Source: Spirochaetia bacterium (lineage in GTDB: Bacteria; Spirochaetota; Spirochaetia; UBA9216). Taken from it: a DNA stretch of 64,000 nt. Positions 1 to 7,265 of the stretch are shown piece after piece. The DNA lies in contig OZ223265.1 of NCBI GenBank assembly GCA_965140585.1, positions 96,001-160,000 of the forward strand, read 5' to 3'. Within the stretch, counting starts at the first letter, position 1. Each line of letters begins with the position of its first letter. The position numbers and the translations under genes were made by a program. Under the pieces are notes generated by a model that had not been told where the DNA came from, did not search any database, and saw only the letters and a program-made list of their open reading frames with translations.

Positions 1-1
1 C

Positions 2-256
2 AGCCGTTAAAAACTTTTCAAACCTGCTCTGATCGGATTCTGATACAGCATTTGAAACTTTGCTCTGTATTCTCTGCCGTATATATTCTCTGGAGACGCT
101 GAATTCATCTCCGACAGTCTGACCGTTTGGATAACGGTTATCGGAGAATCCAAAAAACATGGATACAATACTTATATCTCTTTCAATATTGAGTTCGTCG
201 CGTTTATTATTTTCTGTTTTTAATACAAGCTCATACAGGTAGTTCTGAAAATTCAT
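2..256 (-). CDS. Partial CDS (runs off the left edge) with an N-terminal sigma70 region-4-like HTH
   Basis: Manual translation from ATG at 256: MNFQNYLYELVLKTENNKRDELNIERDISIVSMFFGFSDNRYPNGQTVGDEFSVSREYIRQRIQ... VGDEFSVSREYIRQ resembles the region-4 motif VGxxFxVSRERIRQ. The frame is open to the edge. Confidence 0.6.
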   Translation of the reverse strand, partial: MNFQNYLYELVLKTENNKRDELNIERDISIVSMFFGFSDNRYPNGQTVGDEFSVSREYIRQRIQSKVSNAVSESDQSRFEKFLTA

Positions 257-341
257 GGTCGGTGTTATATCAGTTCTTTCAATTTAAGGGGAATATAATG
301 TCTTTTAAATCAAATTGACAATTTTAGAATTAGTTCATTAT

Positions 342-628
342 ATGAAAAATGAACAACTATTAGTTAGTTTAATACAGACTTTAAACTCAACAATCAATAT
401 ACCGCTTAAGTATTAACCATATTATCTAAAATGGGCAAAAGAGTTTTTAAAATACTGTAATGAAAAAAATATCAATGATTGATTAAAGAATTTCTTACTT
501 TCTCTTATAAAGACTCCGGAACAGTAACAGATCAGAATGTAAGTGCAACCATAATTTATACTCATGTTGCATCAAAAAACAATCTTGGCGTTCAAAGTCC
601 GCTGGATCAACTTAGGGCGTCAAAATAA
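342..628 (+). pseudogene. intI: Integron integrase (IntI-like tyrosine recombinase) remnant with internal deletion and stop codons
   Basis: 533-628 reads QNVSATIIYTHVASKNNLGVQSPLDQLRASK*, matching the IntI C-terminus (TTMIYTHV...GVxSPLD). 342-536, in another frame, reads MKNEQLL...IPLKY*PYYLKWAKEFLKYC...*LKNFLLSL...EQ*QIR with three stops. Confidence 0.75.
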
Positions 629-638
629 CCGAAAACAG

Positions 639-666
639 TAGACAAACGCCATATTTTTTTTATAAT
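639..666 (+). promoter_or_regulatory. Sigma70-type promoter of the N-acetyltransferase gene
   Basis: TAGACA(639-644)-N16-TATAAT(661-666). Confidence 0.5.
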
Positions 667-667
667 A

Positions 668-1603
668 ATGAGTGTGAAGCAGGAAATTATTCGTTTTAAC
701 ATTGAGAGACAGGATAAAACTGACCTGGATGTAAAAGCTTACCTTGCAAGAATAGGCATCATCGAAATTCCCGAACCGACGCTTGAGAACCTCAGGCTGT
801 TGCAGAGCAGTCATCTGCTTCATGTCCCCTTTGAAAACCTGAATATTCATATTTTCAGTCGTCTGTCACAGGATCCCCAGGAGCTGTTTGAGAAGATAGT
901 GCTTCAGAGACGGGGCGGTATATGTTATGAGCTCAACCTGATGTATATGCTCCTGCTTCAGAAAATCGGTTATGATGTAACATATCATGGAGGCCGGGTT
1001 ACAGACGAAGGAACGTTCTTTGACCACACCTTTATAATAGCTAAAATTGACGGAGCCAAATACATTACCGATGTCGGTTTCGGTGATAATTTTATGTATC
1101 CGATGAAATTTGAAGCAGATTTACTTCACAAAGATCCAAAGGGCGATTTCATGATCGACTATGAAGGCGGCGGTTACTATGCTCTATGGAAAAAGACTCC
1201 GGGAAAACCTGTAAAAGGCTATACTTTTACACTTAATATCCGCAAACCGTCGGATTTTACAGAGCGTAGAATCTTCTACACAACTGATCCTTCATCACCT
1301 TTTCATAAAAACCTTATATGTTCCATTGAAAAGAGGGACGGCCGTGTATCATTAAAACAGTCAAAAATAATGATTACCAACGGTTCACAGCGGTCCCAGC
1401 GTAAAATAGATAACTTTCACCATTATATTACACTTTTGTATGATAACTTCGGAATTGTCTTATCGCCGGATGAAAGACGAAAACTAAAAAAAAGCAGATT
1501 TTGGAATAAAAAGTATAATCAGAGAAAAACTCATGCATTGTTAATGGCCAGTTCTATCCAGCAGACCTTCATCAACAAGATGGGAACTCTGCTGGGAGGA
1601 TAA
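668..1603 (+). CDS. Arylamine N-acetyltransferase family protein
   Basis: VPFENL, RGGICYELN (catalytic Cys), DHTFI (His), DVGFG (Asp). The true start may be the GTG at 674. Confidence 0.9.
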   Translation: MSVKQEIIRFNIERQDKTDLDVKAYLARIGIIEIPEPTLENLRLLQSSHLLHVPFENLNIHIFSRLSQDPQELFEKIVLQRRGGICYELNLMYMLLLQKIGYDVTYHGGRVTDEGTFFDHTFIIAKIDGAKYITDVGFGDNFMYPMKFEADLLHKDPKGDFMIDYEGGGYYALWKKTPGKPVKGYTFTLNIRKPSDFTERRIFYTTDPSSPFHKNLICSIEKRDGRVSLKQSKIMITNGSQRSQRKIDNFHHYITLLYDNFGIVLSPDERRKLKKSRFWNKKYNQRKTHALLMASSIQQTFINKMGTLLGG

Positions 1604-1604
1604 A

Positions 1605-2243
1605 ATGTGGTTCGGAACTTCCGCCAACACAGCTGCTGCTGATATTGCAAATCAGGCAGTACGCGACAGTTCTAATTTTGACTGGACATTCATCGCGATA
1701 TTTGCCGTTGTCGTATATATCTATGCAACGGAAATTAAAAATAAAAATTACCGCTCAGTTGCTGCAGGTCTTGCGCTGTACACAGTTCACTGGTTTTATG
1801 AAATCCTTAATGCCATAATTGCACACTTCTCCGGTTATGCGCTGTGGACAGTATCTCCGGAAAGCACAAGTTTCATCCTTTTGATAGGTGTAAGCTGGGA
1901 ACTTTCGATGATGTTCAGTGTCGCAGGTATAGCACTTTCAAAACTGCTTCCTGAAGACAGGTATATGAAAATACTTGGCATAAACAACCGAATAGCTTTT
2001 GCTGTAGGAAATGCTGCTTTTTTCTCAATATTTGAAGTCTTCCTTGCATCTACGCCGGCATTTATATGGGTCTATCCCTGGTGGGGAGCTGTTCCGGTTT
2101 TTATAACTACATATATCCCGTTTTTCCTGGCCTCATTTCTTGTTTTTGATCTGCCCGGAAAAAAACAGAGACGATTTATAATTTCTGCAGCCCTACTTGA
2201 TGCTCTACTGCTCGCAGTCCTTATTCCAGCCGGAATAATTTAG
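1605..2243 (+). CDS. Polytopic membrane protein of unknown function
   Basis: About six hydrophobic segments; starts 1 nt after the NAT stop, with GGGAGG upstream. Confidence 0.75.
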   Translation: MWFGTSANTAAADIANQAVRDSSNFDWTFIAIFAVVVYIYATEIKNKNYRSVAAGLALYTVHWFYEILNAIIAHFSGYALWTVSPESTSFILLIGVSWELSMMFSVAGIALSKLLPEDRYMKILGINNRIAFAVGNAAFFSIFEVFLASTPAFIWVYPWWGAVPVFITTYIPFFLASFLVFDLPGKKQRRFIISAALLDALLLAVLIPAGII

Positions 2244-2270
2244 TGTATTAAATAATCATGTAAATATTAT

Positions 2271-2299
2271 TTGACAAGAACTCTACTCTCCTATATATT
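2271..2299 (+). promoter_or_regulatory. Sigma70-type promoter of the thioredoxin gene
   Basis: TTGACA-N17-TATATT, followed by an AGGAG RBS. Confidence 0.6.
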
Positions 2300-2328
2300 A
2301 TCATTGTTATATATAGGAGTATTTAAAT

Positions 2329-2730
2329 ATGACCGCCATAATTGCTGTAATAGCAGGAATCGCAATTCTTTTTTTCGGATCTCAATATCTTATCGTCCTG
2401 AAAATGAAACTTAAAAAAGGTAAATCTGCACCTGAATTACCAGGCGTTTACGGAAAGGCTGTAAAGAATAAAAAAACATCGCTGTTCTATTTCTACAGCC
2501 CGCAATGCGGAGCATGCAGAACGATGACTCCGCTTGTTGAGCAGTACACAAAAAATAATTCAAGATGTTTTAAGATCGATATTACCAAAGATTCAAAAAC
2601 AGCTTCAGCTTTTGGAATAATGGCTACTCCATCAACTGCAGTAGTAGAGGACGGGATAATACGTGATTTTATTGTTGGACCGAAGCCTCAGTCGGATTTT
2701 GTGGAGCTGCTTGAGCAGACCAGAAGCTGA
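2329..2730 (+). CDS. Membrane-anchored thioredoxin family protein
   Basis: N-terminal hydrophobic helix, FYSPQCGAC (CxxC), GIMATP cis-Pro motif. Confidence 0.85.
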   Translation: MTAIIAVIAGIAILFFGSQYLIVLKMKLKKGKSAPELPGVYGKAVKNKKTSLFYFYSPQCGACRTMTPLVEQYTKNNSRCFKIDITKDSKTASAFGIMATPSTAVVEDGIIRDFIVGPKPQSDFVELLEQTRS

Positions 2731-2793
2731 ATCGGCTCTAATTACATGGCCATCCGTTTTCAGACCCTCGCACCTCTGAGAACATATCCAAAT

Positions 2794-2828
2794 AGAAAGA
2801 GCAGCCCCTTCATAAGGCTGCTCTTTCT
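2794..2828. terminator. Hairpin between the convergent thioredoxin and tyrS genes
   Basis: AGAAAGAGCAGCC-N9-GGCTGCTCTTTCT, perfect 13-bp arms. Confidence 0.7.
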
Positions 2829-2854
2829 CCTTTATATTCATTCCATGTAAATTA

Positions 2855-4099
2855 CTAACCGGCAATCACTCTGAAATATCTTTTCTTTCCTGCTTTCAGC
2901 AGTATCTCACCATCATTAACTGAATCAGCATTGATTACAGCATCAATATCGGTAATCTGAACATCATTGACTCTGGCACCTCCCTGCTGAACAAGTCTTC
3001 TGGCCTCACCCTTTGATGAACAAAGGTCGGTTTTTGCAAAGAGATCCATAATACCGATTCCGGCTTCAAGCTCTGACATCGGAATCGTAACAGAAGGAAT
3101 GGCATCCTTGTCAGCAGCTCCGCCTCCACTTGTAAATGCGGCCTTTGCAGCTTCAAGGGCCTTATCAGCCTCTTCGTCACCATGGATCAGCTTTGTCTGC
3201 TCATAGGCAAGTCTTTCTTTTGCCCTGTTGATATCGGAACCTTCAAGCTTTTCAAGCTCATCAATCTCCTCGATAGGCAGAAATGTGAAGAACTTCAGGA
3301 ACTTGCCAACATCGGCATCTGCCACATTTCTCCAGTACTGAAAAAACTCATATGGGCTGAACATTTTCGGATCGAGGAAAACCGCGCCCTTCTCTGTCTT
3401 GCCCATCTTCTTTCCGTCAGATCTGGTCACAAGCGGAAAAGTGAGTCCAAAGGCCTTAGCCTCTGCGCCTTCAACACGTCTTATAAGCTCCATACCTGAA
3501 ACAATGTTGCCCCACTGATCGTCTCCACCCATCTGCAGAGCACAGCCGTAATCCTGATGAAGCTTCAGGAAGTCGTATGACTGAAGCAGCTGGTAGTTGA
3601 ACTCAATAAAGTTGAGCCCCTTCTCCATCCGCTGCTTGTATGATTCAAAACTGAGCATGCGGTTAACCGAGAAATGGATTCCTATATCCCTGAGAAATTC
3701 AAGGTAGTTAAGAGGGCCAAGCCAGTCATAGTTATTTACCATGATAGCCTTGCCTTCAGAAAAATCTATAATTTTACCAAGCTGATCCTTGATTGATGAG
3801 GAGTTCTGCTGAATCTGCTCGATGGTCAGCATCTTTCTCATGTCTGACTTTCCGGAAGGATCGCCAATCATGGAAGTTCCACCGCCTACAACAGCGATGG
3901 GCCTGTGTCCGGCAGCCTGCAGGTGATGCATGGCAAAAAAGGGAACCATGTGACCTATATGAAGGCTCGGTCCGGTGGGGTCGACACCGACGTAGAGAGA
4001 AATACTCTCTTCAGACATCAATTTTTCAAGGGCGTCAATATCAGTACACTGCTGTATAAAACCCCGTTCTCTAAGTACTTCAAGGCCTGATTTAGCCAT
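2855..4099 (-). CDS. tyrS: Tyrosine--tRNA ligase
   Basis: GVDPTGPSLHIGH (HIGH), QMGGDDQWGN, KKMGKT (KMSKS-like), C-terminal S4-like domain ending GKKRY. Confidence 0.97.
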   Translation of the reverse strand: MAKSGLEVLRERGFIQQCTDIDALEKLMSEESISLYVGVDPTGPSLHIGHMVPFFAMHHLQAAGHRPIAVVGGGTSMIGDPSGKSDMRKMLTIEQIQQNSSSIKDQLGKIIDFSEGKAIMVNNYDWLGPLNYLEFLRDIGIHFSVNRMLSFESYKQRMEKGLNFIEFNYQLLQSYDFLKLHQDYGCALQMGGDDQWGNIVSGMELIRRVEGAEAKAFGLTFPLVTRSDGKKMGKTEKGAVFLDPKMFSPYEFFQYWRNVADADVGKFLKFFTFLPIEEIDELEKLEGSDINRAKERLAYEQTKLIHGDEEADKALEAAKAAFTSGGGAADKDAIPSVTIPMSELEAGIGIMDLFAKTDLCSSKGEARRLVQQGGARVNDVQITDIDAVINADSVNDGEILLKAGKKRYFRVIAG

Positions 4100-4112
4100 A
4101 TTTTTTTTATCC

Positions 4113-5462
4113 TTATACTACGCGTTTGTAATTTTTAATCGCGGCTTTGATAGTCGGTACGAGCTGATCGATTCCGACACGGACCTGCTCCATCGAATCA
4201 CGGTATCTGAGGGTAACTGTCTTGTCTTCCAGAGTGTCGTAGTCAACAGTTACACAGAATGGTGTTCCGATTTCGTCCTGACGCCTGTACCTTCGGCCGA
4301 TGGCGCCGGACTGGTCATAAAACGTGGTGAAATCGTCACGCAGTTCTTCTTCGATACTGCGAGCCAATTCCGCAAGCCCGTCCTTTTTAACAAGAGGGAA
4401 TACACCGACTGTAACAGGAGCAATATTCGGATGAAATCTCATCACTACCCTGCTGTCCGGATTACCCTTCGAGTCTTCACCGAGATCCTCTTCTTCGTAT
4501 GCATCTGACAGAACCATCAGAACACTTCGGGTAAGTCCCGCGGAGGTCTCAATTACATATGGAATATATCTTTCCTTGGTTTCTTCTTCTAAATAGTTAA
4601 TTTCCTTTCCGCAGTATTCACTGTGCCTTGAAAGGTCAAAATCAGTTCTGTTATGAACACCCTCAAGTTCAGAAAAACCGAAGGGGAAATCAAATTCTAT
4701 ATCGTATGCATCTTTCGCGTAATGTGCAAGTTCATCGGGTCCGTGCTGGTGCCACTGAATCTTTGCAGGATTGATACCAAGCTTGTTGACGTAGTAGTTC
4801 CAGCGCTGTTCTTTCCAGTATTCAAACCATTTCTCATCTTCACCGGGCTTAACAAAAAACTGCATCTCCATCTGTTCGAATTCACAGGTTCTGAAGATGA
4901 AATTCTTGGTGGTAATTTCATTTCTGAATGCTTTTCCCACCTGGGCTATACCGAATGGAATCTTTACGCGGCTTGACTGAACAACATTCTTAAAGTTGAC
5001 AAAAATACCCTGAGCTGTTTCCGGTCTCAAATAAACCACTGAACCGGCCTCTGCAACCGGACCCAAATGAGTCTTAAACATGAGATTGAACTCACGGGGC
5101 TCGGTAAATGTGCCCTTATTTCCGCAGACAGGACAGGCGGCTTCAAGGTCTATATGGTCAGCACGAAAGCGGCTTTTACATTCCTTACAGTCTACCATAG
5201 GGTCGGAGAAGTTCTCAACATGTCCTGAAGCTTCCCAGACACGGGGGTGCATCATAATGGCCGCATCAATACCTACGATATTGTCATGCAGCTGGGTCAT
5301 CTCTTTCCACCATACCTTCTGTATGTTTTTCTTGAGTTCTACACCCAGCGGACCGTAATCCCATGCAGAGGAAAGACCTCCGTAGATCTCGCTTGACTGA
5401 TATACAAAACCCCTTCTTTTACACAGGGATACTAATTGATCCATAGTTACGTTATTTGCCAT
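4113..5462 (-). CDS. glyQS: Glycine--tRNA ligase, alpha2 type
   Basis: [46 protein letters not shown]. Confidence 0.96.
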
Positions 5463-5567
5463 GTTTTACACCTTTTCAGTGGATTGTGTTGTTGGAAAAA
5501 CATCCCGTATCTAAGCGGGATAGACAATAAAATATAATAAATTCACCATTATTTCAAGCTGTAAGTA

Positions 5568-7265
5568 TCAGCCGAGGTCTTCCGCCTTCTTGTTGAGTTC
5601 AGCCAGTTTCTTTGAAAAAAGAAGCTGGATACCCCTTTCTTCTATTATTCCCTTCAGCGAACCGTCCTTTGACAGAACAGGGATGTAGTCAACGCTGTAT
5701 TTACGGAAAAGCATCTTGACTTCATCGGCCGGGGTGTCTTCACTGCAGGTAACTACCGAAGGTTTCATAATATCGTGTGCTAGCAGAAAGTCTGAAAGCT
5801 CAGCAGCCATAAAGGTGTTTTTCAGGTCGTCAATGCTGATAACTCCGGCAAGACTGCCGTCGTTCTGGGTTACAGGAAAGCAGAGTGCTTCATTCTCACT
5901 GAAGATATGAAGAATCCGGCTTACCGGAGCTCCCTCAGGTATTGTGGGAAGGTTATGAAACATAAGATCTTTTGCACTGCTCTGCTTAATAAGATCCTCT
6001 TCTGTAATGTTCAGCCCGGTTTCACCTGCTTTATCCACTGCAAACTTTACACTGATGGGTCCGAGCAGCTGAACAACAAATGTAGTCGCTGTAACTACAG
6101 TCACAATCAAATCACCGATTGGGCCGGTAAAGCTGTCCCCGGCTACAATTGAAAGACCGATTGCAACACCGGCCTGGCTCAGCAGACAGAATGGAAGGTA
6201 CTTATAAACAGTTTTCGGAGCCTTGCTGATAAAGGCACCGGTCTTTGCTCCTATAAACTTACCGCCCGTTCTTCCTACAAGAAAAACTCCGGCAAGAACC
6301 GCAACAACAGGCGTTATCGACCATATATTAAGCTTTGCGCCTACCAGCACAAAGAACAGAACGTATATGGGAGGAGAAAACTTCTGTACAAGAGCAAAGG
6401 TTTCACGGCTTTTACGCGGAGCAAAGTTGGTCATAAAGAATCCCATCGACATAGCCGCAAGAATCATATCTATATCAAGGGCAACACAAAGGCCGCTTAA
6501 AAGCATTATAGCTCCAAGCGAGAATGCAAGAATACGCTCCTCGTTTATAAAGCCCCGGATAAGTTTGCTCAGCAGGTATCCCACTGCAGCTCCTACACCG
6601 ATCGACATTACAATCTCTATTACTATAGAAAGGAGCTGTGAAGCCACCGAAATATCGGCACCCGCGGCGACATCAAGAAATCCGGCCGCGATACTTGTGG
6701 CAAAGGCAAAAAGCAGAAGCGCAACAGCATCATCCATGGCTACAATGCCTAAAACAGTGGTTGTGAGAGGGCCCTTGGTCCGATTTTCCCATAGAACATC
6801 TGTTGTTGCGGCCGGAGCTGTGGCTGAAGATATTGCCCCCAGAAGCAGGCCCAGTGAAATGGCTGTCCCCTGATCCTTCGTTATAATCAGAACAGCAGCA
6901 TATACAAGCAGGCCTACAACAATAAAAGCTGTAATCGCCTCAAAAACAAGAATATATGCGAACTGCTTACCCCGCTGCTTCAGCACCGAAATCTTCAATT
7001 CACCGCCGATTGAAAAACCAATCAGCGAAAGCGCAACAGTACTTACCGGAGCCATCTTTGTAACCATATCGGGACCGATAAACTTAAGCCCCGACTGCCC
7101 AAGAATTACACCGATAACTATGTAGCCTACAACCTGGGGAATCTTTATTTTCTGAAACAGTCTGCCGCCCAAAGCTCCTCCGAAGAGAACGATTCCAAGG
7201 AACAGAACCATATTTACATGAGTAGTTGAAACTGTATTGAATATACCGGAGAAAAAATCAGCCAT
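5568..7265 (-). CDS. Cation:proton antiporter with a C-terminal CBS pair
   Basis: Many TM helices, ATAPAAT, AMDDA, FFVLVGA, SQAGVAIGL, then two CBS-like repeats. Start moved to MADFF at 7265, which overlaps the upstream stop. Confidence 0.88.
   Translation of the reverse strand: MADFFSGIFNTVSTTHVNMVLFLGIVLFGGALGGRLFQKIKIPQVVGYIVIGVILGQSGLKFIGPDMVTKMAPVSTVALSLIGFSIGGELKISVLKQRGKQFAYILVFEAITAFIVVGLLVYAAVLIITKDQGTAISLGLLLGAISSATAPAATTDVLWENRTKGPLTTTVLGIVAMDDAVALLLFAFATSIAAGFLDVAAGADISVASQLLSIVIEIVMSIGVGAAVGYLLSKLIRGFINEERILAFSLGAIMLLSGLCVALDIDMILAAMSMGFFMTNFAPRKSRETFALVQKFSPPIYVLFFVLVGAKLNIWSITPVVAVLAGVFLVGRTGGKFIGAKTGAFISKAPKTVYKYLPFCLLSQAGVAIGLSIVAGDSFTGPIGDLIVTVVTATTFVVQLLGPISVKFAVDKAGETGLNITEEDLIKQSSAKDLMFHNLPTIPEGAPVSRILHIFSENEALCFPVTQNDGSLAGVISIDDLKNTFMAAELSDFLLAHDIMKPSVVTCSEDTPADEVKMLFRKYSVDYIPVLSKDGSLKGIIEERGIQLLFSKKLAELNKKAEDLG

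Follow-up and report, generated by a model that had tools for sequence, protein, structure and literature searches.

A remnant of an integron integrase gene beside tyrS and glyS in a Spirochaetia genome, the probable scar of an ancestral integron site

Features of the locus

We analysed a stretch of 64,000 nucleotides (the window) from the genome of a Spirochaetia bacterium, assembly GCA_965140585.1, contig OZ223265.1, positions 96,001 to 160,000. Bare coordinates are those of the window; coordinates with a handle are those of whole contigs, the contig of the window being C2. The genome itself is denoted G000, and related genomes are denoted by other G numbers. The left end of the window contains the following features.

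2..256, minus strand: 5' end of a 510-aa open reading frame (ORF) confined to its own genus, no family match
257..341: spacer separating the intI start from the divergent 510-codon ORF, the expected place of attI and the first cassette
342..533, plus strand: intI pseudogene, N-terminal piece; ATG at 342, about 64 codons, three in-frame stops
528..540: junction of the N- and C-terminal pieces; frame shift, about 325 codons absent
536..628, plus strand: intI pseudogene, C-terminal piece; last 27 codons (NVSATIIYTHVASKNNLGVQSPLDQL), 4 extra codons, TAA at 626-628
668-1603: N-acetyltransferase gene; Pfam Acetyltransf_2, E 4e-52
1605..2243, plus strand: membrane-protein gene, 212 aa; homologue downstream of the intact intI of G006, 75% amino acid identity
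2329..2730, plus strand: thioredoxin-like gene; homologue 1.6 kb downstream of the intI of G007, 80% amino acid identity
2855-4099, minus strand: tyrS, part of the block anchoring synteny with G007 and G006
4113-5462, minus strand: glycine-tRNA ligase gene glyS, part of the same anchoring block

The two intI pieces, together called the scar below, lie in the intergenic stretch 257-667. This stretch is bounded by the N-acetyltransferase gene and by the 510-codon ORF, which starts at 256 on the minus strand and is the left neighbour of the locus in both species of the genus. The frame of the ATG at 342 reads MKNEQLLVSLIQTLNSTINIPLKY*PYYLKWAKEFLKYCNEKNIND*LKNFLLSLIKTPEQ*QIRM, where asterisks are stops: TAA at 414-416, TGA at 480-482 and TAA at 525-527. 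Positions 533-613 encode QNVSATIIYTHVASKNNLGVQSPLDQL, within an ORF at 479-628; the frame of position 302, which reads ...DQNVSATIIYTHVASKNNLGVQSPLDQLRASK*, belongs to the same ORF. The catalytic tyrosine motif IYTHV is at 551-565 in the C-terminal piece, together with the tail specific for IntI. On re-reading of the frames, the strings and coordinates of both pieces in the first-pass annotation of this DNA were found to be correct, including its ATG-initiated upstream segment with three stops. The first 1 kb has a G+C content of 35.7%, compared with about 36-48% (mostly 40-47%) over the remainder of the window.

Two further elements were observed close by. A near-consensus sigma-70-like promoter (TAGACA, a spacer of 16 nt, TATAAT; 11 matches of 12) occupies 639-666, just 3' of the stop of the scar and just 5' of the acetyltransferase ATG (668); the count of sigma-70-like sites in the region is not above that in shuffled sequences. 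The thioredoxin-like gene and tyrS, which are convergent, are separated by a GC-rich hairpin at 2790-2832 (AGAAAGAGCAGCC...GGCTGCTCTTTCT) that probably serves as a terminator in both directions.

The C-terminal piece

Only two of 18,950 NCBIfam models match the ORF 479-628 at E<=10, and both describe integron integrases: TIGR02249, aligned over positions 289-315 of its 315 (23.3 bits, E 3.6e-5), and NF011946 (E 0.0028). In a scan of the own genome the C-terminal piece scores 19.8 bits against TIGR02249. Neither score reaches the curated cut-off of this model, 265 bits. As judged from its sequence, the locus derives from an IntI gene yet encodes no IntI. Neither piece is matched by any Xer or phage-integrase model of NCBIfam or Pfam at E<=10, and the Pfam search with the C-terminal piece gave no match. 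For annotators, the 49-codon open frame 479-628 is no gene.

A profile of the IntI proteins of this clade (418 positions) was made from seven sequences, two of the own genus and five from further genomes of the family. All six frames of the own genome (4.85 Mb) were cut into 97,040 overlapping windows, X standing for stops, and searched with this profile. The C-terminal piece scores 30.4 bits (E 1.2e-6, genome-wide) and aligns with positions 392-418. Its alignment thus extends to the last position both of the clade profile (418) and of TIGR02249 (315). In the intact IntI of the same genome, encoded on contig C6, the XerC and XerD models end at residue 407-408 of 419, whereas the integron models reach residue 418. 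Since the XerC and XerD models end about 11 residues sooner, the tail past the tyrosine motif is the part specific for IntI, and this part is present in the remnant. The first-pass annotation had read IYTHV followed by GVxSPLD as the C-terminus of IntI. This reading agrees with the matches to TIGR02249 and NF011946, with the tail running to the model end, and the profile search against integron integrases and other recombinases gave integron integrases as the best families, XerC and XerD not matching at E<=10.

Direct comparisons are in line with the profiles. In tblastn against window positions 1-1000, residues 394-419 of the own intact IntI align with 536-613 (17 of 26 identical, E 3e-8), and the DNA of the piece resembles the 3' ends of the intI genes of C6 and G007. 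In the region of the tail KNxLGVxSPLD the identity to the IntIs of the clade is 17-18 of 26, and much lower to the other recombinases of the genome (12 of 26 for a 365-aa protein encoded on contig C9). Whether the IntI of G007 or that of C6 is the nearer kin of the scar was considered, but the piece is too short to decide, the identity of 17-18 of 26 being the same for both and having no resolving power. Among the PDB sequences listed for the piece, the sole recombinase is IntI4 of Vibrio cholerae (VchIntIA, 2a3v), aligned by its last 26 residues at a non-significant E of 1.5.

The N-terminal piece

The N-terminal piece corresponds to a clade-specific N-terminal extension of IntI, approximately residues 1-73 of the 419-aa intact copy, where the extension comprises about 100 residues before the core. 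Its pattern YY-x-W...EDWQ is complete in five of the seven IntIs of the clade. In the IntI of G007 the extension is visible on reading through one stop, and the IntI of G002 has a different N-terminus. The extension with this pattern is also found in IntIs of Desulfatitalea, an Aminicenantes MAG and a Deltaproteobacteria MAG. In pairwise comparison with the Desulfatitalea N-termini 18 of 55 residues are identical, the alignment continuing through EQ*QI of the scar against EQWQV.

In tblastn, residues 18-50 of the own intact IntI align with 381-479 (12 of 33 identical, E 0.001 in the 1-kb search space), and both matches of this protein within positions 1-1000 are colinear and on one strand. Against the full clade profile the N-terminal piece scores 15.3 bits (E 0.049, positions 10-65). 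A second profile, made for the extension from five of the seven clade IntIs, gives it 23.8 bits and a genome-wide E of 2.1e-4. At E<=10 the scan with this second profile returned, besides the N-terminal piece, just the intact intI and one match at E 0.55. With the two sequences of the own genus removed from the profile, the E-value of the N-terminal piece is 0.045-0.11, and it is still the sole non-self match. Both pieces are the top non-self matches to the clade IntI profiles across the 4.85-Mb genome. No public family model (NCBIfam, Pfam, E<=10) recognises the N-terminal piece.

One codon, that of the tryptophan in EDWQ, is a stop both in the scar (TAA at 525-527) and in the intI of G007 (TAG at L034:266-268). 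This could be either an inherited shared stop or a coincidence at a mutable TGG codon.

The junction and the missing interior

The two pieces are colinear, on the same strand and 3 bases apart. The alignment of the N-terminal piece ends at about 533 (EQ*QI), and a DNA profile of intI 3' ends aligns with 537-614. The junction is bounded by 528-540, within which the exact base is not fixable, as both source regions fit about equally; a microhomology (CAGAT) is one candidate origin of the junction. Positions 66-391, approximately, of the 418 in the clade profile (about 325 codons, or 1 kb) have no counterpart in 257-667. The catalytic residues of tyrosine recombinases are Arg, Lys, His, Arg, His/Trp and Tyr. 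All catalytic segments other than the tyrosine motif are absent from the scar. So is the additional domain specific for IntI, which falls within the deleted interior; this domain, situated between conserved patches, is used as a criterion for IntI (PMC2426708).

Two candidate extensions of the C-terminal piece were rejected. Positions 461-511, read in its frame (KKYQ*LIKEFLTFSYKD), were considered as a leftover of the core N-terminal domain (profile positions 122-149), but score 4.0 bits at E 130. An upstream extension to TVTD did not stand either: in ungapped protein and DNA comparisons there is no similarity left of about 530. The first-pass annotation had most of one intI gene deleted and the pieces meeting near 528-538. 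Both points are borne out, as the remnant consists of two ends of one gene with the interior gone, and the junction lies within 528-540.

The locus in related genomes

In G001, a genome of the same genus, the flanks of the locus are 88-91% identical in DNA. Between them only a degraded C-terminal piece is found, IIYIHAAG*KRLGI*R*QEQL, 78% identical and with stops. That G001 has the piece in a still more decayed form indicates that the wreck arose before the two species separated and that no selection acts on it. The N-terminal piece is absent from G001. In its place an unrelated ORF of 250 codons, on the other strand, abuts the C-terminal piece at nearly the same base. Left of the C-terminal piece, one lineage at least has thus undergone a change. 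Alignment to the DNA profile of intI 3' ends begins at profile position 166 in G001 and at 164 in the own genome, and the 5' limit of the C-terminal piece is probably also older than the species split; the alignment envelope in G001 permits about 20 further bases upstream.

The 250-codon ORF of G001 (L013:3818-4570, contig C4) has a start resembling a signal peptide; it belongs to no Pfam family, and G000 contains no homologue. It was considered as a cassette and rejected: it has no family, and the region G001:C4:1880001-1899000 contains no attC (best E 0.71, about 5 kb off).

These observations bear on the possibility that the two pieces have separate histories, the C-terminal piece being the sole ancestral leftover and the N-terminal piece having been set beside it by a later rearrangement. 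The nearly equal 5' limits (166 and 164), with different sequence to the left in G001, make this limit look older than its present neighbour. However, the N-terminal piece has the strand and order expected within one gene and lies 3 bases away, which would be a striking coincidence on separate arrival; it has no other copy in the genome except in the intact gene; and the further 20 bases possible in the G001 alignment mean that the two limits may in fact differ. We consider separate histories unlikely, and prefer to regard the pieces as the two ends of a single gene.

Outside the genus, an integrase gene was found at the same place. G007, which belongs to another genus of the same family and is assembled as one contig, contains intI at C1:4525065-4526315 on the plus strand (392 bits). 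Its core is uninterrupted, and the extension has TAG at Trp-68; the core integrase could start downstream of this codon. Directly upstream of the gene, at 4446702-4524339, there is an array of at least 32 attC sites (32 at E<=1e-3), every one of them on the minus strand. Downstream are homologues of the thioredoxin-like gene (80% amino acid identity), tyrS (85%) and glyS (90%). G006, of the same genus as G007, has on contig C30 an uninterrupted intI followed by the membrane-protein homologue (75%), tyrS and glyS in the order and orientation of the window, and then by six more window ORFs, located beyond glyS in the window, with their order and orientation kept; the array side is past the contig end.

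The linkage is not universal. In G004 (contig C45, L094:6568-7828) intI is read in two overlapping frames, covering query residues 1-308 and 298-419, and is apparently split by a frameshift; four attC sites were observed upstream of it. No window gene was found in the 4.2 kb downstream of this intI. In G005, of a third genus, the window genes of the first 12 kb are absent from 14 kb downstream of intI. Thus intI is linked to window genes in two of the four relatives outside the genus (G007 and G006, with G004 and G005 lacking the linkage; G010 is left out of this count, its contig being too short), and since G007 and G006 belong to one genus they are not independent. On the left flank, only one stretch of 550 bases out of 16.3 kb has a match (in G004) among five genomes of the family.

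The first-pass annotation had pointed to the tyrS flank of relatives as the place to look for an intact gene, and intI is indeed present there in G007, with an attC array, and in G006. A best match to XerC or XerD, or relatives without intI and attC at this locus, had been named as findings that would speak against an integron integrase; neither was observed. The presence of intI at the same locus upstream of tyrS and glyS in relatives identifies the fragment as a scar at an ancestral integron site.

Similar short matches were seen elsewhere. In several genomes of other phyla (loci L084-L089; Caldilineaceae, Desulfobacteraceae, Prolixibacteraceae and others) the match to IntI is confined to its final 22-40 residues. 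Some of these may be similar C-terminal leftovers, or divergent recombinases.

The working integron of the same genome

The first-pass annotation had left a dead integron. This does not hold for the genome, as a complete integron of usual layout is located on another contig, at C6:916643-966453. The intact intI (C6:916643-917902, minus strand, 419 aa) scores 374.7-377.9 bits against TIGR02249, above the cut-off of 265. On its 5' side 28 attC sites of about 136 nt extend along the plus strand over 46 kb (919946-966453).

The 15.7 kb on the 3' side of this intI are colinear with the intI flank of G001 at 85% identity. The same block is colinear with G007:3458274-3473641, about 1.05 Mb from the G007 integron, and the collinearity with G007 stops 40 bases or less from the stop codon of the C6 intI. 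The far flank of the C6 array has no similarity to the continuation of the conserved block in G007, and the new site is therefore not a clean insertion.

A maximum-likelihood tree was constructed from the last 315 residues of the seven IntIs of the family and 14 outgroups, with no rows dropped and three outgroups flagged as long-branched. The pair from the own genus and the three IntIs of its sister genus form sister groups (support 99/95); the family clade including G005 has support 95/93, and G002 falls outside. This placement puts the working intI of the own genus in one vertical lineage of the family and argues against a foreign import. The working intI of the genus is, on this phylogeny, a vertical descendant of the family intI at a new address.

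G000 and G007, although of different genera, share the sequence subtypes of their attC sites, with near identity inside each subtype, even though their IntIs are only 49% identical.

Another recombinase was observed near attC sites. The 365-aa protein encoded at C9:487086-487910 matches TIGR02249 positions 2-180 and 235-315 (96 and 99 bits), with no match to the model positions in between. Its counterpart in the second species is at G001:C4:1138286-1139110, with attC at 1142610-1149382. In both species the gene is within 3.5-8 kb of attC (C9:478768-478901 in the own genome), and its product may be a second, non-canonical recombinase associated with attC.

Search for attC sites and the origin of the neighbouring genes

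The attC sites of Spirochaetes have been modelled by Ghaly et al. 2021 (PMC8352920). We constructed an attC profile from 12 sites of the C6 array and applied it to the whole genome with filters off at E<=10. There are 39 matches: 28 in the C6 array, five at C2:31261-35243 on the minus strand (three of them strong), one strong match at C9:478768-478901, and five weak ones elsewhere (E 0.065-9.3). In this genome-wide nhmmer search no attC was found in C2:80001-160000 at E<=10, and a separate nhmmer search of C2:80001-98000 at E<=1 gave none either. A covariance model of 26 attC sites from two genera was run with filters off over C2:80001-98000 and all of the window. At E<=10 there are 14 matches; the highest-scoring one (15 bits, E 0.13) is inside the membrane-protein gene, and none is an attC; as a control, nine held-out attC sites from G001, G004 and the C2 cluster score 78-156 bits. 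Two weak matches at 2781-2842, one per strand (E 1.4 and 3.4), correspond to the GC-rich hairpin described above and were rejected. The spacer 257-341 contains nothing resembling attC or the sequences upstream of intI, and Rfam has no match in window positions 1-6000 at E<=1.

The small cluster at C2:31261-35243, with three strong and two weak attC on the minus strand, is located 61 kb left of the window start and has no intI nearby; an ORF for a 402-aa tyrosine recombinase is found beside it, at about C2:29.9-30.3 kb. We considered this CALIN as the old array of the scar. Its orientation fits, but it is 61 kb away, there are no attC sites in between, and G001 has no counterpart near its locus.

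Cassettes of this clade are positioned 5' of intI; the genes at 668-2730 (acetyltransferase, membrane protein, thioredoxin) are positioned 3' of it. Since homologues of the thioredoxin and membrane-protein genes are found downstream of the intI genes of relatives, they represent a conserved flank and not cassettes.

The first-pass annotation had suggested that the neighbouring genes are former cassettes, fixed when the integrase of an integron still in place had died. The left neighbours are indeed specific for the genus and have no family assignment, and the C2 cluster to the left has the expected orientation. On the other hand, neither the profile nor the covariance model found attC in C2:80001-160000, where controls score far higher; the left neighbour is as long as 510 codons, and the flanking genes are on both strands; the genes to the right are on the non-cassette side, two of them being shared with relatives that have intI; and near the locus in G001 there is no cluster of attC sites. 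This explanation is thus very improbable, and the suggestion of fixed former cassettes is not supported.

Discussion

An origin of the pieces from a Xer-type or phage-type tyrosine recombinase, or as chance look-alikes, is hardly credible: the YTH motif region is common to all tyrosine recombinases and the match to the IntI4 structure sequence (E 1.5) is non-significant alone, but Xer and phage-integrase models give no match at E<=10, the KNxLGVxSPLD tail is much closer to the clade IntIs than to the C9 recombinase, the N-terminal piece matches an extension seen in IntIs only, and the similarity to intI 3' ends extends to DNA.

The preferred reading is that 342-628 is a non-functional remnant of intI, its ends joined after the loss of about 1 kb, at an ancestral integron site. 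We hold this to be very probable. The interior of the gene, that is, the core-binding and catalytic body, would have been lost, and the ends joined near 528-540. The remnant would make no recombinase and have no attI or attC partner, and would be neutral, decaying DNA.

The scar is an object of a known kind, an intI pseudogene, and dead intI genes are common. Nearly one third of genomic intI genes are described as inactivated by stops, frameshifts or major indels, Xanthomonas being the classic example (Nemergut 2008, PMC2426708). The scar is similar to the chromosomal pseudogenes described there in its stops and large deletion, its conserved position and the working copy in relatives. It differs in that it keeps only about 90 of about 420 codons, has no array, and shares the genome with a working integron elsewhere. 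The same paper describes an IntI clade that is about 120 aa longer through a shared gene fusion; the extension of the present clade may correspond to these long forms. The intact IntI of G000 aligns with residues 15-319 of the V. cholerae IntI4 (2a3v) at E 1.6e-64. Of this protein the scar retains the counterpart of the last 26 residues and lacks all else, and the clade IntIs carry the N-terminal extension of about 100 residues, which IntI4 does not have.

A further published parallel is in Treponema. In T. phagedenis attC sites and cassettes are present at the syntenic site without intI (Wu, Doak and Ye 2013, PMC3607928). The authors call this the first case of integron loss; among spirochaetes they then saw integrons in Treponema only, with intI and cassettes in the same direction. 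In both cases a spirochaete integron is gone from its ancestral site and is recognised by synteny and leftovers. The scar is a mirror image of the Treponema case, as it keeps the ends of the integrase gene and has lost the attC sites, and unlike the Treponema integrons those of the present clade have the usual divergent layout of intI and cassettes.

A literature search found no paper on relocation of a chromosomal integron leaving a scar; supplements were outside its scope, and this is no proof of absence. To our knowledge, published evidence on gain, loss and movement of chromosomal integrons is sparse.

On the preferred reading, the common ancestor of the own and the sister genus would have had its integron at this site, the working intI and array of the own genus now being elsewhere. 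As both ends of the gene are still at the old site, a simple cut-and-paste transfer would not suffice, and two copies must at some time have coexisted. A second copy of intI might have arisen alongside this one by duplication or duplicative rearrangement, after which the old copy would have decayed by deletions and its array would have been lost or emptied. Upstream, 86 bp separate the old ATG from the start of the genus-specific ORF, which suggests one or more further events that removed the old array and attI. Moreover, the different left neighbour at nearly the same base in G001 means that a single ancestral deletion would have to be complemented by a second event ending near there.

It is quite possible, and we put it forward tentatively, that a sedentary integron has changed its address within this Spirochaetia family, the old platform having been gutted and a scar of 290 bp being its sole trace. 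The integron of the ancestor would have stood beside tyrS and glyS, and the second copy of intI (1.26 kb, now with the 46-kb array) would have been established at an unrelated conserved block. The old cassettes might even have been re-collected by the new platform, which is conceivable given the near identity of attC types between the two genera. If the address change is true, the stop at the shared tryptophan codon (TAG in G007, TAA in the scar) would have been inherited and would tie the scar to a gene of the G007 type.

The value of the scar is that of a positional fossil of the old site of the integron. Taken together with the intI of the sister genus and the integron on C6, it would be evidence that replacement or relocation of a large chromosomal integron can occur inside one lineage.
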